64,000 nucleotides of DNA from Candidatus Latescibacterota bacterium (lineage in GTDB: Bacteria > Latescibacterota > UBA2968), in contig OZ242311.1 of NCBI GenBank assembly GCA_965207885.1, positions 224,001 to 288,000 of the forward strand, read 5' to 3'. Made by a program: the position numbers and the translations under genes. Positions 45,116 to 56,943 of the stretch are shown here, in pieces. The first letter of the stretch is position 1, and each line of letters starts with the position of its first letter. The notes under the pieces are model-generated. The model saw only the letters and a list, made by a program, of their open reading frames with translations, ran no database searches and was not told the origin of the DNA.

Positions 45116-48007
45116 ATGGCCGAAATAGTTGACACTTTACTGGAAGCGGTTGATTTTGCGGTTCGCAAACGCGATGGTCGGGTCGTGGATTTTGACCGCG
45201 CGCGCATTGAACGCGCGATTGAGGCGGCATTTAGAGCCGAGTTGGGCTTGTCCAACGATCATTCATTGCCGCCCAAAATTGGAACCGACGTGTCGGAACT
45301 CACCGACGCTGTTATTTCTGAAATTGAAGGGGAACTGCATGAGCCGGATGACAGCGTAGATGTCGAACGCATTCAGGACAAAGTCGAAATCCAATTAATG
45401 CGTGCAGGCCACTTTGCGGTCGCGCGACGCTACATCGTCTATCGAGAAGACCACAAAAAAGCCCGCGTACTCAGCGGCAAAGAAGAACCCCAGGACCCCA
45501 ACGCGCCCAAACTGCGCGTACAAACAGCCGACGGCAAGCGCGAACCCCTCGACGCCAACCGCATTCGCACCGAAGTATTTGCCGTTTGCGATGACGAGGT
45601 AGATCCCCAGGCCCTGCTCGACGAGATATATCGCTCCCTCTACGACGACATCAAACCCGACGATATCGAACGCGCCATGATATTGGCAGCGCGCAGCCGC
45701 GTGGAAAAAGAACCCGCCTATAGCAAAGTCGCAATGCGGTTGCTCCTCAACGTGATCTATCGCCACGCCCTGGGATTCAAACCCGCGATAGAAGACAGGG
45801 ACACAGCCTGTCGGCAGGGATTTGCAAAATTTATTGAAACGGGCATTGAAAACGATCGTTTAGATCCCAAATTGCGCGTATTTGACCTGGAGCGTCTATC
45901 CGCGGCATTAAAACCCGAGCGCGATGAAGACTTTGAATACCTGGGCGTACAAACCATTTTTGACCGCTATTTGCTCCACGTCAACGAGCGCCGCATTGAA
46001 ACCCCGCAGTTCTTCTGGATGCGCGTGGCCATGGGCCTGTCCTGGGACGAAGAAGACAAAGAGGCGCGCGCCATTCAATTTTACGAAGTACTCTCTTCCT
46101 TCCGATTTGTCTCTGCCACACCCACCCTGTTCAACGCCGGCACCCTGCATCCGCAGTTGTCCTCGTGTTATCTATCAACTGCGCAAGATGACCTGGAACA
46201 CATATTCAAAATGGTATCCGACAATGCCAAATTATCCAAATGGGCGGGCGGTCTGGGCAATGACTGGACAAATGTGCGCGCCACAAATTCCTATATCCGC
46301 GGCACAAACGGCAAAAGCCAGGGCGTCATTCCATTTTTGAAAGTCGTGAACGACACAGCAGTTGCCGTCAACCAGGGCGGAAAACGCAAAGGGGCGGTAT
46401 GCTCCTATCTGGAAACCTGGCATCTGGACATCGAAGATTTTATGGAGTTGCGCAAAAACACGGGCGATGACCGCCGCCGCACACACGATATGAACACGGC
46501 CAACTGGATCCCCGACCTGTTTATGAAGCGCGTCATGGAAAAGGGATCCTGGACCCTGTTCAGCCCGGATGAAGTCCCCGACCTGCACGATCTGTACGGC
46601 AAAGCCTTTGAAGAGAAATACCTCGCCTATGAACAAAAGGCCGAAGCCGGTGAACTGCAACAATCTCGCCAGATCGACGCCGTGCAATTGTGGCGAAAAA
46701 TGTTGTCCATGCTCTTTGAAACCGGGCATCCGTGGATCACATTTAAAGACCCGTCCAACATCCGCTCTCCGCAGGATCACGCGGGCGTTGTCCACAGCTC
46801 GAACCTGTGTACTGAAATTTTGTTGAACACGAGCCGCGAAGAAACCGCGGTATGCAACCTCGGCTCCGTAAACCTCGTGGCGCACATCACACCCACGGGC
46901 CTCAACCGAGAATTGCTGGAAGACACGGTATCGACCGCGCTTCGAATGCTGGACAACGTGATAGACATCAATTTCTATCCCACAGAAGAAGCCGCCACAT
47001 CCAACAAACGCCACCGCCCCGTGGGCCTGGGCGTGATGGGATTTCAGGACGCGCTCTACCTGTTGAATTTGCCCTACGCTTCGCAAGGCGCAGTTGACTT
47101 TGCCGACATAAGCATGGAAATGATCTCGTATTACGCGATCCTCGCCTCAACGCACCTGGCCGAAGAACGCGGCACATACCATTCCTACATCGGTTCAAAA
47201 TGGGACCGCGGTATATTGCCCATCGATACCCTGACCGTGTTGGGACAGGAACGCGGGGCGTACCTCGAAGTCGATACATCCGCGCGACTGGAATGGAATG
47301 TGGTGCGCGAAGCAGTCGCCAAACACGGCATGCGAAACAGCAACGTGATGGCCATTGCCCCGACCGCCACCATATCGAACATCTCGGGCGTGACGCAATC
47401 CATCGAGCCGATGTATCGCAACCTGTATGTAAAAGCAAATCTATCCGGTGACTTTACCGTATTAAATCCCTACATGGTCGATGCCTTAAAAGCGCGCGAC
47501 CTGTGGGACGACCAGATGGTAGATGATCTGAAATACTACGACGGCTCAGTCCAGGAAATCGACCGCATCCCACAAGACATAAAAGACCTCTACAAAACCG
47601 CGTTTGAAGTGGCACCCGAATGGCTCATTGAATGCGCCAGCCGCCGGCAAAAGTGGATCGACATGGGCCAATCGCTAAATCTGTACATCGCAGCCCCCAG
47701 CGGCAAAGCACTGGACGACATGTACAAACTCGCCTGGGTGCGCGGGCTGAAAACCACGTACTACTTGCGCTCACTCGCTGCGACCCAGATCGAAAAATCC
47801 ACCATGGACATCAACAAACGCGGTGTCCAACCCCGGTGGATGCAGTCCAAATCCGCTTCGAGCGATGTGCAAGTACAACGCGAAGATGCTCCTGTTGAAA
47901 CAGACGCGTCTCTCAACGGGCAGGTACACCAACAGGCCCCTGCTACACCAGCACCAACGGCTGAGGCCTGCGATATTACAGACGGCTCCTGTGAGGCGTG
48001 TCAATAG
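45116..48007 (+). CDS. nrdA: Class I ribonucleotide reductase alpha subunit with N-terminal ATP-cone(s)
   Basis: [12 protein letters not shown] cone, [36 protein letters not shown]-terminal CEACQ. Confidence 0.97.
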
Positions 48008-48073
48008 ATCGATTCGTTCTGTCTTTTTGCGAGGGTATCTTCATGTAAAATAAAGAGCCTGTTTATAAATAAA

Positions 48074-48109
48074 TGAAGGTCGTGTCTTTTGGGGAAACAC
48101 GACCTTCAA
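48074..48109. terminator. Hairpin/terminator downstream of nrdA
   Basis: TGAAGGTCGTGT...ACACGACCTTCA. Confidence 0.7.
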
Positions 48110-48264
48110 AAACCTAATATATGTACTGACTGCATCAGTTGGCTGAATTTATGAAAATTCTAATTTCCTGACAAGTGTAAAATCAAGCGGTTTGGTGTAA
48201 AAACAACAAGGTAGATAATTTTTTTCTCCTCTAAACACTAACAGTCGGAAGGAGGTGAATATAA

Positions 48265-48402
48265 ATGAGAATCAAGACAACAACAAGAAGGCCGATAATT
48301 CGGCGGGGACCAAGAGTTCCGGTGACCTTTAAGATCAAAACCACCGTGAAGTGTGGTAGTAGAACCACCACAAGAACCAGAAGGATTACGCGGCATATAT
48401 AG
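48265..48402 (+). CDS. Unannotated 45-aa Arg/Thr-rich basic micro-protein
   Basis: AAGGAGGTGA Shine-Dalgarno 6 nt before the ATG; MRIKTTTRRPIIRRGPRVPVTFKIKTTVKCGSRTTTRTRRITRHI. Confidence 0.65.
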   Translation: MRIKTTTRRPIIRRGPRVPVTFKIKTTVKCGSRTTTRTRRITRHI

Positions 48403-48668
48403 CTCGATCCGGAAACAAAAAATAAAGCCCGCCGGAGCGGTCAACTCACGACGGGCGAAGTCACTATCCACCTTGCAGCAAGAGGATGGCTATAAGTTAA
48501 TACTAACCATCCTCTTGTCAAATCATTTTAGGGAGGGCTTAGTCATGTAGCAATTTACGTTTCAAATTCCGCCACCAAACAGTGACCTTGACATATGTAC
48601 CTGTTCCGGGGTAGGCGAGTATAATTTCCTCAATAGGTCCACCGACACCTCTTTCCAAGGAGGACACA

Positions 48669-48881
48669 ATGGTGTCACGTTTTGAAATCTACCAAGACAA
48701 TATAGGAGAATGGCGTTGGCGATTTAGAGCAGCAAACCACAAGATTATCGCCGTTTCCAGTGAAGGATATAGTAGCAAACAAGCGTGTCTTGACTCAATT
48801 GACTTGATCAAGACGACCGCTGGTAGTGCTCCCGTGTATGAATACGATAGTATTACATCAACATGGCGACGACGCCAGTAG
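48669..48881 (+). CDS. YegP / DUF1508 family protein
   Basis: AGGAGG RBS; FEIYQD..GEWRWRFRAANHKIIAVSSEGYSSKQAC. Confidence 0.9.
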   Translation: MVSRFEIYQDNIGEWRWRFRAANHKIIAVSSEGYSSKQACLDSIDLIKTTAGSAPVYEYDSITSTWRRRQ

Positions 48882-49042
48882 TGAGTGCCCATCGCGTGCT
48901 TGGGCAGATCGCGCTGGTGGGCACTGACATTTTTTATGCGAAACACACACCTATTCAAGTATCTCTGCAGGTGTTTTTTGATCAGGGATGATGTGGGTGA
49001 GATACTGGTCCAAGATACAGATATATTTTTCGGAGGATTCAA

Positions 49043-50194
49043 ATGTCTTCAAAAATCTCTTTTTTTCCCGTTGGCAATGGTGACATGACTCTGATTGAGA
49101 CAGAGTCCGGGCGAAAGATCCTGATTGATATGAATATTCGGGCAGCAGCAGATGATCCTGACGACGAAACCCCTGATGTTGCCAAGATGCTTAGAGAACG
49201 TCTCGGACGCGATTCTGAGGGTAGACTATATGTGGATGCCTTGCTGATCAGTCATCCCGACCAAGATCACTGCAATGGCCTTTCCAAACACTTTTATCTC
49301 GGTCCTCCTGACAAATGGTCCAAAACATCTGACAAGGTGTTTATTCGAGAGATATGGTCCTCGCCTATGGTGTTTCGACGTGCATCTCGGAACCATGTTC
49401 TTTGTGACGACGCTAAAGCTTTCAATACCGAAGCACGCCGACGTGTTCAGGAATTCCGTGATAACGGTAGTGAGGTTGACGACGGCGACCGCATCCGCAT
49501 CCTCGGTGAAGACGAGAACGGTAAGACTGACGATCTCGATGAAATCCTTGTTCGGGTGGATGAAACCTTCTCATCCATCAATGGCCAAGACGATTGGTCA
49601 ATGACAGCAAGGCTGCTCGGGCCACTCCCGAAGTCAGATGATGACGACGAAGATATTTTGTCGAAGAACAATTCCAGTACCATTCTTAAGTTCTCTTTAG
49701 CAGGTGGGGGAAGTTCCGATAAATGTCGATTTCTGACTGGCGGGGACGCTGAAGTTGCGATATGGGAAAAGCTCTGGCAACGTCACGATTGGCGGTCAGA
49801 ATGGTTATCCTACGACATCTTGCTGGTACCTCATCATTGCTCATGGCATAGCTTGTCTTACGACAGTTGGAGTGATTTAGGCGAAGATGCCGAGGTTTGC
49901 GAGGACGCACGCAATGCTCTTTCACAGGCCCGCACTGGCGCGATGTTTGTGGCGAGTAGCGACCCGATCAAGGATGATGACAACGATCCTCCCTGTATTC
50001 GAGCGAAACGCGAGTATGTGAGTATAGAGAACGATACCGATGCTTTTAAATGCACCGGCGAGTACCCTTCAGAGAAGTCACCTGACGTGCTTGAGTTTGA
50101 AATAGGTAGTGATGGACCACGCCTACTGACAGCACTTATGGTAGGAGGTACTGCTCCGGGAATCATAGGCCAGCAGCCACTGTCTCACGGTTGA
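49043..50194 (+). CDS. Metallo-beta-lactamase-fold hydrolase with C-terminal Gly tail
   Basis: FFPVGNGDMTLI, SHPDQDHCNG, NNSS, GGDAE, PHHCS; ends GIIGQQPLSHG. Confidence 0.9.
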   Translation: MSSKISFFPVGNGDMTLIETESGRKILIDMNIRAAADDPDDETPDVAKMLRERLGRDSEGRLYVDALLISHPDQDHCNGLSKHFYLGPPDKWSKTSDKVFIREIWSSPMVFRRASRNHVLCDDAKAFNTEARRRVQEFRDNGSEVDDGDRIRILGEDENGKTDDLDEILVRVDETFSSINGQDDWSMTARLLGPLPKSDDDDEDILSKNNSSTILKFSLAGGGSSDKCRFLTGGDAEVAIWEKLWQRHDWRSEWLSYDILLVPHHCSWHSLSYDSWSDLGEDAEVCEDARNALSQARTGAMFVASSDPIKDDDNDPPCIRAKREYVSIENDTDAFKCTGEYPSEKSPDVLEFEIGSDGPRLLTALMVGGTAPGIIGQQPLSHG

Positions 50195-52482
50195 GGTTGA
50201 CAATGGTAGAAGTCAAAATCAGCAAAGCTATCAGGCGTGCATTGACTTTGATGGAGGGCCATCCGGCTATTTGTCATGTGGCAATTTCATCTTTTGATAA
50301 AGCCATGAGGACAACCAGCGTCAATGCGACGTTTGATGTTAGTTTGCCGAATGCGTGGAGGTCCTCCGGAGAAAGTCCTTCAGGTGTCAGGCTCAAAGAA
50401 GAGGTACGTTTCGATTTCCCTAACGACTTTCCTTTCAGCCCTCCACGTATATCATTACGCAGGGATTTCAATCGCAATCTGCCTCACATGCAGCCGTATT
50501 TGCTTTCCGGGCGACCGGTTCCCTGTATCTACGATGGTGATATTACCGAACTTCTTCACCAAGAAAGATTGGTCGGCATTCTCAATCAGGTCTCTGTTTG
50601 GCTTGATCGCGCTGCTACGCTTACCCTTATGGATCCAGAACAAGGGTGGGAACCCGTCCGTCGCGACACGTTTGAGTCATATATTGTCGCTGACGCCGAC
50701 AAATTCCGTGGATTGGTAAACCGCAGAGGTGGATACAAATTCTTTGAGTTTGAATATCTGAGGAATACCACTAATGGCTATAAAGGCTTTGTTCGCGGAC
50801 TAATTTCTCCCTCGGTACTCAAAGTAAACTATAATGCAGTACCCAAAATATATAAGGAGAAACCGTTAGATCCGCCTCTTCGTTACGGCAAATCACTGGC
50901 GTTGCTCGTCTGGCCGGGTAAGCTCCCGTCAGGTAAGTTGATTGTCGCGGACTCGTACCTTCCCGAAACTGTGAGTAATGTTGATAGCCTTAAGGAACGC
51001 GCTAAATCGTACGGTTGTCTCAAGGAACTTGACTCTGGTCTCAATTGGCTGAAGCGATGCCTATCGCGAGATGTAGAAGCCGGTCCACTCACCATAGCAA
51101 TTGTACTCATGGCACGTCGTCCGTTCAAGGTAATTGGAAGTCAAAGCTGTATTGAGTTATGTCCATATATTGTGGACATTTACACCCCTGATTTATTCTT
51201 GGAAGGTGGGGAAACAGCAGTGCGACCAGCCATACATCTCCAAACAGTAAGCCGTTCCCTCCTCGCTCAATTGTCAGGCGGTACAGCACAATCGGAACGA
51301 CCGTACTGGACACTTGTCGGTGCAGGTAGTCTGGGATCAAAGTTGGCCCTTCATCTTGCGCGAGCTGGATATGCACCTGAAATCGTTCTGGATAAGTCGC
51401 CAATGTTACCGCACAATGCGGCGCGGCATGCACTTATTCCTCCGACAGGCGGTCCGCAACTTCTTGGGATGGATGCCAAGGCCAGAAGGCTGTGTGATGC
51501 ACTGAGCGGATTGGATCAGAAAGCAACACCGATCATAGAAAATGTTGTCAGCATATTAAAATCCAAAACTAAGGTGCGACGTGTCTGTTCAAAGGATTCA
51601 TGGGCGATTGTAAACGCAACAGCCTCTTTGGCTGTCCGTCAAGCTTTTGCATTGACCGAATCGCTGACCACGCGGGTTATTGAGACTTCCTTATTTGCAG
51701 GTGGCATTGTCGGAATAATTACGACCGAGGGGCCAGACCGAAATCCAAACACCGCCGATCTGATAGCTGAATGCTACGGAATCCTGCGAGAAGATCCAGA
51801 CTTAGCGCATATCGTATTCAGAAGTGATGACGCGATGTCACGCCAAAGCATTGGTCAAGGTTGCGGCTCTCTGACGATGACTATGTCGGATGGACGCTTG
51901 TCACTATTTGCCGCTGGAATGTCTGAATACTTGCTGGCAAAGCAGCGCAATGGATTGCCCAGTGCCGGTGGTGAAATTCTTATAGGTCGGTTATCCGCAG
52001 ATGGGCTTGGTCTAGAATGGTGTGTTCACCAAATTTCGCCAGCGACAGTCGTGAATACAATAAACGGGGGAAAATGGCGCGTTCACATTCATCCGCGAGC
52101 AGTGGCGAAGATTGAGCAAGAAAGAATATGCCACCCGAAGGTCGAGACAGGTGGCGTACTTATGGGCCGAATTTCGGAGGCGTCCCAAATTATTAATGTT
52201 GTTGACGTTTTGGGTGCGCCAGAGGATAGCACACGATCGGCAACTGAATTTGTTCTTGGTACCAAAGGATTAAGTAGCCAGATGAGGACCTACTCAGAGT
52301 CAGTCGGTGGGTCGCTCTACTGTCTCGGCACTTGGCACAGCCATATTTCCGTAAGTGGCCCATCCTCGACAGACCGGGCAACCGCAAAGGCAATTGACCT
52401 ATCACGTCTTTGCCCATCGGTTCTCTTGATAAGCACTCCTGTAGGTTTTCAAGCACTTTTGGCTGACGAGGTAGGTAAATGA
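50191..52482 (+). CDS. Prokaryotic E2-E1(ThiF)-JAB fusion protein
   Basis: E2 (FPNDFPFSPP..PH..PCIY), E1 (GAGSLGS, HNAARH, GQGCGS), JAB (ETGG..WHSH..PSSTD). Confidence 0.92.
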   Translation: MRLTMVEVKISKAIRRALTLMEGHPAICHVAISSFDKAMRTTSVNATFDVSLPNAWRSSGESPSGVRLKEEVRFDFPNDFPFSPPRISLRRDFNRNLPHMQPYLLSGRPVPCIYDGDITELLHQERLVGILNQVSVWLDRAATLTLMDPEQGWEPVRRDTFESYIVADADKFRGLVNRRGGYKFFEFEYLRNTTNGYKGFVRGLISPSVLKVNYNAVPKIYKEKPLDPPLRYGKSLALLVWPGKLPSGKLIVADSYLPETVSNVDSLKERAKSYGCLKELDSGLNWLKRCLSRDVEAGPLTIAIVLMARRPFKVIGSQSCIELCPYIVDIYTPDLFLEGGETAVRPAIHLQTVSRSLLAQLSGGTAQSERPYWTLVGAGSLGSKLALHLARAGYAPEIVLDKSPMLPHNAARHALIPPTGGPQLLGMDAKARRLCDALSGLDQKATPIIENVVSILKSKTKVRRVCSKDSWAIVNATASLAVRQAFALTESLTTRVIETSLFAGGIVGIITTEGPDRNPNTADLIAECYGILREDPDLAHIVFRSDDAMSRQSIGQGCGSLTMTMSDGRLSLFAAGMSEYLLAKQRNGLPSAGGEILIGRLSADGLGLEWCVHQISPATVVNTINGGKWRVHIHPRAVAKIEQERICHPKVETGGVLMGRISEASQIINVVDVLGAPEDSTRSATEFVLGTKGLSSQMRTYSESVGGSLYCLGTWHSHISVSGPSSTDRATAKAIDLSRLCPSVLLISTPVGFQALLADEVGK

Positions 52483-53231
52483 ATAATATTAGTATGCTAA
52501 TTAGCGATCCGTATGACCGAAAAGCTCGGCTAAAACCTGCGCTTTTGGCTCTACTTCCCCTTATTTTTTTGTGTATATCTCTATTTCCTGAGATTCAATC
52601 AATATGGTCCACTGTGGGAGGAATAGTGGTATATTGCGGTAGCACAATGTTGCTCATTCAGTTTGGTCGTAACTGGGGGAAACTACTTGAACCATCACTT
52701 TTTCGAGCATGGGGTGGTAAACCTTCAGTAGCTATGCTGCGGCATTGCGACACGCGCCTCTCCCAAGATCAGAAAAATCGGTATCGAGCCTTCTTAGAGC
52801 GAAATGTTCCGAAGTTGAAGTTAGCATCCCCGGAGGAGGAAGAAAAAAGTCTTACTCAAGCCGATGATGGATATGAGAGTGCTACCGCTTGGTTATTGAC
52901 TCGGACAACAGATCACGAACGTTTTAAACTGATTTTTGAGGAGAATATCAATTACGGATTTCGTCGAAATATAAGAGGTCTTAAGCCCATAGCGATTATT
53001 TTGGATATTATCGTCATCACAATCTTCTTGATTTGGTACAGTTCGCTATGGACAGGCGAAATTCTTTCTACCCTGAATTCTATCGATATATACGGACAGA
53101 TCACTGGGATACTTGTCATTCTCCACTTGTTTTCTTTTTTATTTTTTATCACGCGAGACTGGATACGCCCATCGGCTGAGGCTTATGCTCGACAATTGCT
53201 TGCTGCATGCGACCATTTAGAACAGTCTTAA
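52479..53231 (+). CDS. Membrane protein (~4 TM), last gene of the MBL/E2-E1-JAB operon
   Basis: ATGA overlap with the previous gene; hydrophobic segments; YDRKARLKPA, WGGKPS, ENINYGFRRN. Confidence 0.8.
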   Translation: MNNISMLISDPYDRKARLKPALLALLPLIFLCISLFPEIQSIWSTVGGIVVYCGSTMLLIQFGRNWGKLLEPSLFRAWGGKPSVAMLRHCDTRLSQDQKNRYRAFLERNVPKLKLASPEEEEKSLTQADDGYESATAWLLTRTTDHERFKLIFEENINYGFRRNIRGLKPIAIILDIIVITIFLIWYSSLWTGEILSTLNSIDIYGQITGILVILHLFSFLFFITRDWIRPSAEAYARQLLAACDHLEQS

Positions 53232-53324
53232 TCAAATCAGTAAACAGAATTGAAGCACGGTTTGGCGAAGGCCCAAACAAAGACACAACGACTATATAGC
53301 AAGTTGAAGAGGCTAATAGCGAAT

Positions 53325-53362
53325 AAGGGGAGCGGATTAAGTCCACTCCCTTTTTCTTTTTT
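53325..53362 (+). terminator. Intrinsic terminator closing the MBL operon
   Basis: AAGGGGAGCGGA-TTAAG-TCCACTCCCTTT followed by a T-tract. Confidence 0.75.
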
Positions 53363-53430
53363 AGCCCAGAGGATAATTATGTATTGTGCTGTACTTGATT
53401 ATTGGGTAATATAATCAGTAAATTTTTTTG

Positions 53431-53519
53431 TTGACTATCCGAAATTTATGACTGATAATAAGCAAGTTTTTACCACAACATTTTGTGCTCTTTTTTCGTT
53501 AATGACAAAATATTGTGTC
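53431..53519 (+). promoter_or_regulatory. Sigma-70 promoter followed by tandem NrdR boxes
   Basis: TTGACT-17-GATAAT; CCACAACATTTTGTGC (53473-53488) and GACAAAATATTGTGTC (53504-53519), 31 bp apart. Confidence 0.72.
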
Positions 53520-53675
53520 ATAAATAAAAGGTCTGCAATAATTTAAAGCGATTCCCCAATCGCTTTAAGACCATTTCCTCTCCCTTCCATTTCTCCCTCT
53601 GTCGTCTCCTTGCGACTCATCGCACTGGCGACCTTATTTTTTTAGATAGATTCGACGCAATCATCATTCGGCAAA

Positions 53676-53828
53676 ATGACCCGATTGCTCATCCATGTCG
53701 AGGGCGAAACCGAAGAAACTTTTGTAAACGAGATACTCGGACCGCATCTTTACGCCTGTGGCTATACGATGGTCAGTGCTCGTCTGGATAGACGATTCAC
53801 CTCGCACCGTACACTCCAAGCGTTATGA
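53676..53828 (+). pseudogene. N-terminal fragment of a second DUF4276-type TOPRIM gene (50 codons)
   Basis: MTRLLIHVEGETEETFVNEILGPHLYACGYTMVSARL...; its stop overlaps the ATPase start (ATGA). Confidence 0.7.
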
Positions 53829-55099
53829 ATTTATCTATCTCACAACCACGCCCTCCAGCACGTATCGAATACCTGAAGGTGCAGAACTTTCGTGCTTTGC
53901 GAGAGGTTGAATTCAAGGAATTGACACCGCTGACTGTGTTACTCGGTCCCAATGGCAGCGGCAAATCAACAGTATTTGACGTATTTGCGTTTCTATCTGA
54001 ATGCTTTGAGGTGGGTTTGCGCCGCGCCTGGGATCAGCGTGGACGCGCCAAAGAACTGCGGACGCGGGGCAACATCAATCCCGTTGTCATCGAACTCAAG
54101 TACCGCGAACGACCAGGCACACCTCTGATCACTTATCACTTGGCTATTGACGAAGACCGCAATCGTCCCGTTGTAATGGAGGAGTGGTTACAATGGCGGC
54201 GCGGACAACGTGGCAGACCATTCCGATTCCTCGATTATCGCGAGGGACAGGGCAGGGCGATCAGCGGTGAGCAACCAGACGACGAATTGGACATGCACAA
54301 CGAGGGAATGATCCAATTAGACCCGCGCAACGAAGTACCGCTCCAATCGCCCGATCTGCTGGCAGTCAATGCCTTGGGACAACTTGCCGCTCACCCGCAC
54401 GTAGCAGCACTGCGCGACTTCATTACCGGATGGCATGTGTCATACCTATCGGCAAACAGCGCACGGGGTCAGCCTGAAGCAGGACCGCAGGAGCGACTGT
54501 CAAGAAGCGGCGACAATCTTGCCAATGTTATACAGCACCTCGCAGAGCAACATCCCGACCGGCTTAACCAGATCTTTGAGGTGCTACGCCAGCGCGTGCC
54601 GCGTATTGAGCGCGTGCTATCAGATATCATGCCCGATGGCCGTCTATTGTTGCAGATCAAGGACGCGCCATTCAGCAACCCGGTGTTGGCGCGATTCGCT
54701 TCTGATGGCACATTGAAAATATTGGCTTATCTGGTACTGTTATACGACCCCGAACCACCACCCTTCATCGGCATTGAAGAACCGGAAAACTTCTTGCACC
54801 CTCGATTGCTTTCGGAACTTGCCGAAGAATGCCGTGCGGCCTGCGAACGCACACAGTTATTGGCGACCACGCATTCGCCGTTTTTCCTGAACGCACTGCG
54901 CCCCGAAGAGGTACGCGTTCTCTGGCGCGACGAGCAAGGGTACACACAAACAAGCCGCGTCGCAGATATACCTGGCATACCGGAATTTGTCGAAGAGGGT
55001 GCATATCTCGGCCATCTATGGATGGAAGGATATTTCAACCTAGGAGACCCGCTGGACAGACATGGTGAACCGACTTCTCCTCTGGGGGGACGCGGGTAA
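53825..55099 (+). CDS. ABC-fold (AAA_21/SMC-like) ATPase
   Basis: [20 protein letters not shown] signature, [15 protein letters not shown]. Confidence 0.92.
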
Positions 55100-55716
55100 T
55101 GACGGCACAACATCTGGAATTACTCGTCGAAGAACCCTCAATGGAGGCCTTCTTGCGAGAGTTGTTGCCGCGTATGCTGTCCGCGGAATGCACATTCAAA
55201 ATTCATCCGTTTCAGGGGAAGCCAGACCTATTGGACAAGTTGCAAAATCGTCTGCAAGCCTATGCAAAATGGTTACCCAACAACTATCGCATCTTCGTAG
55301 TCGTTGACTGCGATAACGACGACTGCGAACAATTAAAACAAAAACTGGAAAACATTGCTTCTCGGACTCAGTTGCTCACCCGCTCACAGGCCCGTGGTCG
55401 CCCATGGCAACTGGTCAACCGCATTGCCATTGAAGAACTGGAGGCATGGTACTTCGGCGACTGGCAGGCGGTGTGTAATGCTTATCCGAGGGTTTCAAAA
55501 AAAATTCCCAATCAAGCACGCTATCGCCACCCCGATGCAATCCGCGGAGGCACCTGGGAAGCTTTCGAACGCATCTTGAAGCGACATGGCTACTTTAAAA
55601 CTGGACTACGCAAGACGGAGGCTGCCAGAGATGTTGGTATTCATATCGATTCTAATCGTAGCCGTTCGCACAGTTTCGTGAAATTTCGCGAAGCCATTAT
55701 TGAGGCAACTGCTTGA
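55099..55716 (+). CDS. DUF4276-family TOPRIM-like protein
   Basis: LLVEEPSME, VVVDCD (DxD), IEELEAWYFGD, SHSF; TAATG coupling to the ATPase. Confidence 0.85.
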   Translation: MTAQHLELLVEEPSMEAFLRELLPRMLSAECTFKIHPFQGKPDLLDKLQNRLQAYAKWLPNNYRIFVVVDCDNDDCEQLKQKLENIASRTQLLTRSQARGRPWQLVNRIAIEELEAWYFGDWQAVCNAYPRVSKKIPNQARYRHPDAIRGGTWEAFERILKRHGYFKTGLRKTEAARDVGIHIDSNRSRSHSFVKFREAIIEATA

Positions 55717-55755
55717 ACCATTATTATATTTCATTTTTTTTAAAGGAGTTGTGAT

Positions 55756-56943
55756 ATGGCTAAGCTCATATTTGAAGACGAAGATGTTGAAAGTCATGCA
55801 AATATGGACTACCAAAACGGTGGTCACGCGCAGCAAAACGGTATTCATGCACCCGTTGAAGCGGATAACACTGACGTGCCATCCGCGCTGTGTTGTGGTG
55901 CCACTGGCGAAGCGTATGACCTGACCAAGCGCATCAACCCGGAAGACAAGCGATTGCTCAACTGCCGGCAGGTAGATGTGAACCAGTTGATGCCTCTCAA
56001 ATACGAATGGGCATGGGAGCACTATCTCAACGGATGTGCCAATCACTGGATGCCGACAGAAGTGCCCATGCAGCGCGACATAGAACTCTGGCGTTCAAAT
56101 GCACTGAACGACGCCGAGCGAAAAGTCATCTTGCGAAACCTCGGATTCTTCAGCACGGGCGAAAGCCTCGTCGGCAACAACATCGTACTCGCCATCTTCA
56201 AACACATCACAAACTCCGAAGCCCGGCAATACCTCTTGCGCCAGGCATTTGAAGAAGCCATACACACGCACACATTCCACTACATCGTCGAATCCCTGGG
56301 GCTAAACGCGCGCGAAGTATTCAACATGTATCACGAAGTCGCCTCCATTGAAGGCAAAGACAAATTCGTGATGGAACTAACCGAAGATGTACTGGACCCC
56401 AATTTTACAACACAAAGCATTGAAGGCATACAGAAATTCGTGAAAAATCTCATCGGCTTTTACGTCATCATGGAAGGCATCTTCTTTTACAGCGGCTTTG
56501 TAATGATCCTCTCCTTCCATCGGCAAAACCGCATGACCGGCATCGGCGAACAATTCCAGTACATCCTGCGCGACGAAACCATACATCTGAATTTTGGCAT
56601 CGACCTGATCAACACCATAAAACTCGAAAATCCAGAAATATGGACAACGGAACTGCAGCGCGACATCTACGACCTCATCCACGAAGCCGTGGAATACGAA
56701 GTCATCTATTCACGGGATTGTGTGCCCGACGGCGTACTGGGCCTCAATGAAGACTTATTCCGCGAATACGTGCAATTCATCGCCGACCGCCGATTGGAAC
56801 GAATCGGCCTACAAAGCGTATATGGATCGAAAAATCCATTCCCGTGGATGGGAGAAACCATTGACATCGCAAAAGAAAAGAACTTCTTTGAAACGCGCGT
56901 CACGGATTATCAAAGCGCGGGATCCTTACAGTGGGATGATTAA
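55756..56943 (+). CDS. nrdB: Ribonucleotide reductase beta subunit with class Ic (Mn/Fe) signature
   Basis: [49 protein letters not shown]. Confidence 0.96.

Follow-up and report, generated by a model that had tools for sequence, protein, structure and literature searches.

The 64,000-nucleotide stretch of DNA considered here, which we refer to as the window, comes from a Candidatus Latescibacterota bacterium (GenBank assembly GCA_965207885.1, contig OZ242311.1, positions 224,001 to 288,000) and carries, between its two ribonucleotide reductase genes, nrdA and nrdB, an insert of 7.75 kb (a gap of 7,751 bp, window positions 48008–55755) over which the G+C fraction drops from ~0.54 in nrdA to 0.41–0.49. 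At the centre of our analysis stand three genes of that insert (49043–53231), which encode an enzyme of the metallo-β-lactamase (MBL) fold, a fusion of E2, E1 and JAB domains, and a membrane protein. These genes constitute an intact 6A-MBL anti-phage operon, the core of which is already known. The account that we favour, and hold with moderate confidence, is that the operon is the cargo of a genomic hotspot, that its MBL is conjugated by the ligase, that the membrane protein is the likely effector, and that two small upstream genes, yegP and a micro open reading frame (micro-ORF), are passengers. The features on which the argument draws are these:

45116–48007, nrdA, the left border of the insert
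48265–48402, plus strand, micro-ORF of 45 aa, basic, with a GGAGG ribosome-binding site
48408–48646, conserved non-coding leader block upstream of the operon
48669–48881, plus strand, yegP-like gene of 70 aa, a single DUF1508 domain (Pfam)
49043–50194, plus strand, 6A-MBL enzyme gene, an MBL-fold metallo-hydrolase of 383 aa
50191–52482, plus strand, cap2_3 gene, the E2-E1-JAB fusion of 763 aa
52479–53231, plus strand, membrane-protein gene, 250 aa, of a family without a name
53327–53362, plus strand, hairpin and T-run, a likely intrinsic terminator as read from the sequence
53825–55099 and 55099–55716, HEC-01-like pair (PADLOC), an AAA_21/AAA_15 ATPase and a DUF4276 protein
55756–56943, nrdB, the right border of the insert

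The 6A-MBL operon, its ligase and the tail of its enzyme

Adjacent genes of the operon overlap by 4 nt at both junctions: at 50191–50194 the TTG start of the ligase gene lies across the end of the MBL gene (cac ggt tga, hence ggTTGa), and the ligase gene in turn closes with aaa tga, which holds the ATG of the membrane-protein gene (aATGa). The same order of MBL and then ligase is found in 32 further loci. When scored against the equivalogs of NCBIfam release 20, the window MBL reaches 444.7 bits with NF058524.1, '6A-MBL_enzyme' (E 2.2e-133, residues 7–358; cut-off 220 bits), and the fusion reaches 576.2 bits with NF058523.1, '6A-MBL_cap2_3' (E 9.9e-173; cut-off 320), and it is because both proteins exceed these cut-offs that the core can be called known. 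Operon type 6a, an MBL with an E2-E1-JAB protein, was first described by Iyer, Burroughs and Aravind (2006), as its row 6a sets out, and the window has that same core, with the MBL directly followed by a single E2-E1-JAB polypeptide and all motifs present. An anti-phage function is asserted, with citation of van den Berg et al. (2024), in the pertinent passages of three papers (PMC13276650; PMC13700489; 10.1101/2025.09.30.679545), one of which counts 6A-MBL among the jumbo-phage defences of Pseudomonas aeruginosa; the names of the NCBIfam models likewise state an anti-phage 6A-MBL system.

A preliminary description of the locus, made from the sequence alone, had reported three overlapping genes with intact motifs and had placed them in the 6A-MBL, or MBL-group, type. 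Both statements hold, the first through the 4-nt overlaps and the invariance of the catalytic residues in the alignments described below, the second through the NCBIfam scores and row 6a of Iyer et al. It had also remarked that neither a CD-NTase nor a ubiquitin-like protein is encoded, and here, too, it was right: there is no CD-NTase match in a PADLOC scan of seven open reading frames (ORFs; 48265–55716) nor among the Pfam hits, and the Pfam scan of nine window proteins returned no ubiquitin-like family, so that the separate β-grasp ubiquitin-like gene of the Bil and Bub systems was not found. Neither of the two small genes, yegP and the micro-ORF, has a product that ends in Gly. These scans covered the listed ORFs, and smaller unlisted ones lay outside them.

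In the fusion, Pfam recognizes Prok-E2_A (9.2e-24, residues 39–173) and Prok-JAB (1.1e-06, residues 647–749), and the PADLOC E1-E2 and JAB models match at 5e-17 to 3e-13. A 13-sequence alignment that takes in an archaeal copy, from Methanoregula, leaves invariant the E2 cysteine C112 (in PCIY), H99, the E1 loop G377/G379/G382-S383-K384 and the E1 cysteine C558 (in GQGCGS), and the JAMM residues E652, H716, H718, S725 and D728. As a profile searched against solved structures, the fusion finds Cap2 as its best relative (7to3, E 2.8e-9), with which its E1 region matches, and, for the JAB region, 9ild (7.2e-8); as a single-sequence query against the same structures it finds nothing at E 0.01. One further candidate, locus L016 from Polaromonas, was rejected as a 6A-MBL system, its ligase falling below the NCBIfam cut-off and its JAB being a separate gene.

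The MBL has no Pfam match. Its metal motif, HPDQDH, occupies residues 71–76, and H71, D75, H76, D235, H264 and H265 are invariant in an alignment of 63 MBL sequences. Among solved structures, a sequence search returned only ComEC, in its MBL nuclease domain (E 8.8e-4 and 5.5e-3). The AlphaFold2 model, with a mean predicted local distance difference test score (pLDDT) of 92.6, has as its best fold match the ComEC MBL domain 9ic4 (Foldseek E 1.6e-12, template-modelling score 0.71 on the target), further top matches being pneumococcal phosphorylcholine esterase Pce and the β-CASP RNases. Because the metal site is complete and invariant and the fold resembles ComEC-type nucleases and phosphodiesterases, we predict that the MBL is an active hydrolase of the phosphodiesterase type, a nuclease being the simplest case. 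The likeness to 9ic4 extends to the HxDxDH motif variant, common to both; unlike the ComEC domain, to which it is 15% identical, the window MBL is soluble, is 117 residues longer, has an extra C-terminal sheet and a tail, and is encoded apart from its membrane partner. Weak matches are also found to the Avs1a, LmuA and RTasMBL models (Avs1a at 7.7e-4 in PADLOC and 4e-5 in NCBIfam). Trypsin-MBL and Avs1a-type systems share with the window an MBL fold in a defence context, by weak profile matches; as the relevant part of their description has it, a protease activates them by cutting inhibitory loops, whereas the regulator in the window would be a ubiquitin-type ligase and peptidase acting on the C-terminus.

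The C-terminus of the MBL deserves separate treatment. Residues 362–383 are modelled at a pLDDT of only 52–65, as a flexible or disordered tail, and the protein ends ...QQPLSHG, the terminal residue being a glycine, G383, that is conserved in at least 90% of the 63-sequence alignment. The preliminary description had pointed to a flexible tail terminating in Gly, and the low confidence of the model in this segment and its ...PLSHG end agree with it. The MBLs of 16 genome loci end in HG (12), YG (1), HG with four further residues (2) and FA (1), the last belonging to a divergent Polaromonas operon. A broader survey took in the 85 full-length MBLs (335–460 aa) among the 150 representatives listed of clusters at 50% identity; of these, 46 have a final G and 16 a final A (HG 25, YG 15, YA 12), and many of the remainder continue for a short stretch beyond HG or YG, which is the pattern of ubiquitin-like precursors trimmed by a JAB peptidase.

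The tail follows the presence of the ligase gene. Counted over all fetched loci, which include related sequences, 29 of the 34 MBL ORFs with an E2-E1-JAB gene directly downstream end in [H/Y/F][G/A], three more have [H/Y]G with an extension, and two fit neither form. In contrast, among the 38 MBL ORFs without a ligase neighbour, only one ends in [H/Y/F][G/A] and one has [H/Y]G with an extension; the latter, at locus L005, does have a ligase, which was missed by the ORF caller and is present by tblastn. The other ends in this group are PFYxQVE (19) and various (17). The same contrast is met from one bacterial phylum to another, and in one archaeon. The preliminary description had staked its proposal on a conserved terminal Gly among homologous MBLs, and such conservation is found, 32 of the 34 ligase-adjacent MBLs having the motif or the motif with an extension. 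That a terminal Gly runs through the family and is tied to the ligase gene fits the MBL being the conjugated protein, and we consider its conjugation through Gly383 likely. In the sections of Ye et al. (2024) concerned with MBL pathways, these are described as conjugating their enzyme.

Several features of other MBLs may be recorded beside this survey. In the ligase-free MBLs that resemble the PADLOC model PDC-M48B, the [H/Y]G tail is replaced by a conserved acidic C-terminal motif, ...(L/V)PFYxQVE(A/E/D). It occurs at loci L048, L050, L052, L062, L064, L070, L074, L076, L080, L083, L085, L087–L090, L092, L098, L102 and L105, with the MBL directly upstream of a membrane gene, and may be a non-covalent docking motif. 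Among long relatives, P0146 (631 aa) has ...RPHG and then ~220 more residues, P0147 (1166 aa) looks like an MBL read through into the ligase, possibly via a frameshift, and P0123 and P0168 (504 and 532 aa) have an extra C-terminal domain and no Gly tail.

By homology with Cap2 and Cap3 of type II CBASS (the anti-phage signalling system that relies on cyclic oligonucleotides), the E1 domain would adenylate the MBL at its C-terminal Gly383, the MBL would be handed as a thioester from E1 Cys558 to E2 Cys112, and it would then be ligated to an amine target, which would prime the enzyme. The JAB domain would reverse the conjugate and, in relatives with residues beyond the Gly, would first trim these. 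The likeness to type II CBASS goes beyond the Cap2-like ligase and the JAB peptidase present in both: window-type MBLs likewise have a disordered tail, with Gly or Ala as its last residue and in some cases an extension that can be removed, and in both systems a variable downstream gene stands in the effector position. Several features set the window apart from type II CBASS: the seven ORFs scanned with PADLOC give no CD-NTase match, the conjugated enzyme would be of a hydrolase fold and not a nucleotidyltransferase, Cap2 and Cap3 are fused in one protein, and the membrane protein shows no known sensor domain for a second messenger.

The membrane partner and the order of action

The membrane protein has about four hydrophobic helices, in segments ~15–60 and 164–229, which flank a central domain (~63–165) with the invariant motif ENINYGFRRN; its invariant residues are W78, R88, E121, N156, Y159, F161, R163 and N164. 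The positive side, which we take to be cytoplasmic, holds both termini and the central domain. The protein has no Pfam or PADLOC match, its sole NCBIfam row scores 20.2 bits against a cut-off of 124, and none of its 357 homologues is named. The AlphaFold2 model is all-helical (pLDDT 89.5); compared with ~48,000 solved chains it gives a best Z of 5.6, to helical bundles resembling G-protein-coupled receptors and below the level that is meaningful for helical proteins, and in the ESM Atlas it finds only unnamed clusters.

Gene neighbourhoods were examined in 104 related loci, 24 from genomes and 80 from metagenomes, the latter anchored on the membrane protein. Iyer et al., in row 6a, and NCBIfam list two genes for 6A-MBL; the window and most of its relatives add a coupled membrane gene. 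In all 12 of the complete genome-locus operons for which downstream sequence is available, the third gene encodes a membrane protein as predicted by hydropathy: six belong to the window family (including the archaeal copy, at 28% identity), four to another family, one is PDC-M48A (L005, 1.9e-64) and one is weakly Csx27-like (1.8e-6). An independent even draw of 401 Pseudomonadota genomes contains 10 with a ligase above the cut-off, and in eight of these a membrane-protein gene, again by hydropathy, lies downstream; four are of the window family, one of them beyond an intervening second MBL gene, and four are others. Plasmids of Methylocystis heyeri and of a Sagittula sp. have the window membrane family as their third gene, and the operon on a Burkholderia glumae plasmid has another membrane protein and a second MBL.

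The same membrane family is also met outside the 6A-MBL system. Homologues occur in 87 of the metagenome and genome loci, 70 of which have at least 600 nt upstream; in these 70, the gene has a ligase directly upstream in 30 and only an MBL directly upstream in 24, has an MBL directly downstream in 8, abuts a convergent MBL-ligase operon in 4, and has none of these neighbours in 4. It thus adjoins MBL-fold genes in 66 of 70 loci. The ligase-free MBL partners match PDC-M48B (1e-84 to 1e-129), and translational coupling between them and the membrane gene is frequent. The membrane protein therefore travels with the MBL whether or not a ligase is present, and since the same family pairs with ligase-free MBLs, it is a partner of the MBL rather than of the ligase. 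Some operons (L050, L108 and the B. glumae plasmid) have both a Gly-tailed 6A-type MBL with its ligase and a PDC-M48B-like MBL with the membrane protein.

PDC-M48 is a PADLOC candidate system in which A is a small membrane protein and B an MBL, and membrane proteins of the window family directly follow MBLs of the PDC-M48B type. The window MBL itself matches four PDC-M48B models weakly (1.3e-5 to 1.1e-4), and the window membrane protein has no PDC-M48A match, an hhalign comparison of its family with a PDC-M48A member giving a probability of 0.2%. Unlike the window operon, loci of the PDC-M48 type have no ligase; no [H/Y]G tail is present on their MBLs, for which PFYxQVE is a common ending (19 of the 38 ligase-free MBLs). 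The occurrence of a membrane protein and MBL both without and with a ligase parallels the relation of type I to type II CBASS.

Two of the plasmid copies have regulator genes upstream, as an observation apart. Divergent helix-turn-helix (HTH) and ImmA/IrrE metallopeptidase genes, CapH/CapP-like, precede the operon of the Methylocystis heyeri plasmid (L152:9–1216), and a divergent WYL-domain gene precedes the 6A-MBL operon of an Acinetobacter plasmid (L155:205–1107). Regulators of these types, HTH with ImmA/IrrE and WYL, have also been reported for CBASS, a further likeness between the two systems. The window operon lacks a regulator gene of this kind; what it has is the conserved leader, with its inverted repeat of 11 bp.

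The membrane protein is, then, a genuine conserved partner of the system, and the preliminary description's inclusion of it in the operon is vindicated by the gene neighbourhoods; its proposed role as the effector is plausible. The primed hydrolase and its membrane partner together would abort infection, with the membrane protein as the membrane-acting downstream effector. That the membrane protein acts last is a call we put a little short of even, and it is favoured because unrelated membrane families swap in this slot, as effectors usually do.

Several points weigh against the account that we favour. The third gene is not universal: in the Pseudomonadota draw, one of the 10 ligase operons is followed by a 126-aa ORF with no predicted membrane segment and one by a 399-aa protein with a single weak membrane segment, and an Acinetobacter baumannii plasmid operon has only a second MBL instead of the membrane gene. 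NCBIfam, moreover, defines 6A-MBL by two proteins only. By hhalign, the window membrane family matches three other third-gene families with probabilities of 0.2%, 0.15% and 1.6%, and third-gene families without detectable homology are awkward for a common activation mechanism. The loci behind the tail counts are not independent events. Finally, the nearest folds of the MBL are nucleases and related defence MBLs are described as killing DNases in the pertinent part of their literature, so that the MBL may itself be the effector.

This last point leads to the strongest alternative, in which the roles are reversed: the MBL would be the terminal effector, a ComEC-like DNase that stays inactive until conjugation primes it, and the membrane protein, no killer in its own right, would be its sensor, its anchor or the target of conjugation, and would bring the nuclease to the membrane. 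In ComEC, too, an MBL nuclease is joined to a membrane channel. The best matches of the MBL, to the ComEC nuclease domain, Pce and the β-CASP RNases, and its weak matches to Avs1a, LmuA and RTasMBL point in the same direction, and in trypsin-MBL modules, according to the portion of the report that treats them, the MBL is an autoinhibited DNase and itself the killer (10.1101/2025.09.03.673762). Lys99 of the membrane protein may also be read in this way: of 31 ligase-linked copies, 90% have K at this position, against 21% of 24 ligase-free ones. The contrast, however, lies between two clades and may be pure phylogeny, and K99 is not invariant, so that we treat it as a speculative lead. A complex prediction for the MBL with the membrane protein scored 0.00 against a mark of 0.32 and, run without controls, is neither support nor counter-evidence. 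What stands against the reversal is the occupation of one slot by unrelated membrane families, which is commoner for swappable effectors, and we regard the reversed order as a serious contender, nearly as probable as one in which the membrane protein is the effector.

The operon leader and the nrdA–nrdB hotspot

The preliminary description had proposed that YegP or the basic peptide of the micro-ORF might be accessory sensors or substrates, and had itself tied the proposal to yegP co-occurring with such operons. The yegP product is a secure member of DUF1508 (PF07411; 3.7e-18, 65.6 bits against a cut-off of 22, a single domain), and several things can be said for a part in conjugation. A promoter-like stretch precedes the gene and the MBL gene follows it; no terminator is predicted in this interval, so that yegP may be co-transcribed with the operon. 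There is also a faint precedent, in the relevant passages of the sources, in the DUF1508 domains fused to ubiquitin-like proteins in seven Bub operon Ubls and in those at the N-termini of Menshen NsnA, where a sensor role is proposed. No co-occurrence is seen, however: by tblastn the window YegP is found in 0 of the 24 genome loci and 0 of the 80 metagenome loci, and a DUF1508 profile run on six-frame translations finds none in the 104 related loci (best non-window E 0.98), although the profile, built from nine homologues, is narrow and a very divergent DUF1508 could escape it. Nor does DUF1508 occur in any of 13 same-genus nrdA–nrdB hotspot regions.

Two same-genus relatives, L001 and L139, carry the operon at 88–92% protein identity without yegP, and in L001 and L018 the conserved leader extends to the point at which yegP is missing or replaced. 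YegP-like single-domain genes also occur in 34 phage records, and the window YegP ends ...RRRQ, not in Gly. The gene is an insertion into the operon leader that is specific to this strain and shows as an indel when near-identical relatives are compared; it is no conserved part of the system. The micro-ORF fares no better as an accessory: L018/L151, in which the operon is deleted, retains it with an in-frame 6-nt indel, whereas L001 and L139, whose operons are intact, lack it, and L140 keeps part of it. It is a local passenger not linked to the system, and as most of the substitutions between its two copies change the amino acid, it counts as a putative ORF. A role for either as sensor or substrate of conjugation is accordingly highly improbable, and a slight residual chance of some local role for yegP is kept only because of the Bub and NsnA precedents.

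The leader itself, at 48408–48646, is 89% identical in L001 and 85% in L018, in each with differing flanks. It contains an 11-bp perfect inverted repeat (48479–48517) and a promoter-like TTGACA...TATAAT. The block is single-copy in the genome, so no repeat, and Rfam gives no match up to E 1 on 47900–49200. Within this conserved block, the minus strand of 48400–48530 forms two strong hairpins and has a terminator-like U-run after the second of them (z −4.35, 0 of 200 shuffles equally stable); candidate roles are those of an antisense or regulatory small RNA, or of an operator combined with a terminator. Also on the minus strand, and antisense to the micro-ORF, is a putative, very hydrophobic 46-aa ORF (48231–48371), with a terminator-like hairpin of 14-bp stem downstream of it (48074–48108). 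At the other end of the operon, the hairpin and T-run at 53327–53362 (fold z −4.0, 0 of 200 shuffles equally stable) probably end the 6A-MBL transcript, although the terminator pattern scan has no entry for it.

The insertion site is a variable defence-cargo hotspot within the genus. In the 19 same-genus genomes in which both nrd genes were located, the nrdA–nrdB gap measures 28–33 bp in four (G406, G409, G410 and G413), 468 bp in one, and 1.4–9.7 kb in 14, the window included. The 6A-MBL ligase occurs in 3 of 21 genomes of the genus, always inside this gap: in the window, in G408 (= L001) and in G411 (= L139). The HEC-01-like pair of the window (HEC-01A 1.4e-162, HEC-01B 4e-86 in PADLOC) occurs, whole or partial, in 8 of 15 occupied gaps inspected, and is a separate candidate defence system and no part of the 6A-MBL operon, being present in relatives without 6A-MBL and absent from the 6A-MBL-carrying L001. 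In L018 (7001–7698), the same locus as L151 (791–1488) and from the same genus, one sees a deletion derivative of the operon, in which residues 1–172 of the MBL are fused to residues 188–250 of the membrane protein and the entire ligase is gone; the adjoining HEC-01 pair is intact.

That the operon is a decaying or silent passenger of the hotspot, or a housekeeping locus without an immune role, as its dispensability in L018/L151 and its presence in only 3 of 21 genus genomes might suggest, is very improbable, given that none of the three window genes is truncated or lacks a catalytic residue and that the patchy spread across phyla, the plasmid copies and the setting in a defence-rich hotspot beside HEC-01 are typical of defence cargo.

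Two further observations concern the neighbouring cargo. Where the window has HEC-01, its closest relative has other genes (L001:11203–14161), namely a 335-aa protein with a weak nucleoside 2-deoxyribosyltransferase-like match (E 0.0023), a SocA/Panacea antitoxin-domain protein (1.4e-16) and small membrane ORFs. In the window itself, a 50-aa ORF at 53676–53828 on the plus strand, starting MTRLLIHVEGETEETF, looks by eye like the N-terminus of a DUF4276 protein; an HEC-01B-like gene may once have stood here, of which this ORF would be what is left.

Meaning for the 6A-MBL family

The locus itself offers little that is new, being an ordinary copy of a known defence system. What the comparison of its relatives suggests is that the two-gene definition of 6A-MBL, in row 6a of Iyer et al. 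and in NCBIfam, omits a usual third component, a membrane protein drawn from interchangeable families. As a lead this is modest, and may already be described in the 6A-MBL literature.

A bolder construction would have 6A-MBL as a three-part system derived from an older killing pair of MBL and membrane protein, which ligase-free loci like PDC-M48 would still show, and into which a Cap2-Cap3 fusion was inserted, between the two genes, with the docking tail PFYxQVE replaced by a conjugatable [H/Y]G; the ComEC-like hydrolase would then be activated by being tethered covalently to the membrane protein, Lys99 of the cytoplasmic domain being the candidate site. We think this unlikely as it stands, though well short of dismissing it. 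Were it true, this would be the first bacterial ubiquitin-type ligase with a dedicated acceptor encoded in its own operon. The targets of Cap2-type conjugation are described as not known in the part of Ye et al. (2024) that addresses them, and an operon-encoded membrane partner would be a concrete candidate for such a target.

The tie between 6A-MBL and the uncharacterised PDC-M48 provides a natural comparison, with ligase and without, for what conjugation adds to an MBL and its membrane partner. The tail rule, [H/Y/F][G/A], in some cases extended by a few residues, where a ligase is present and commonly PFYxQVE where it is not, would likewise serve as a simple sequence marker of those MBLs that are substrates of a ligase.

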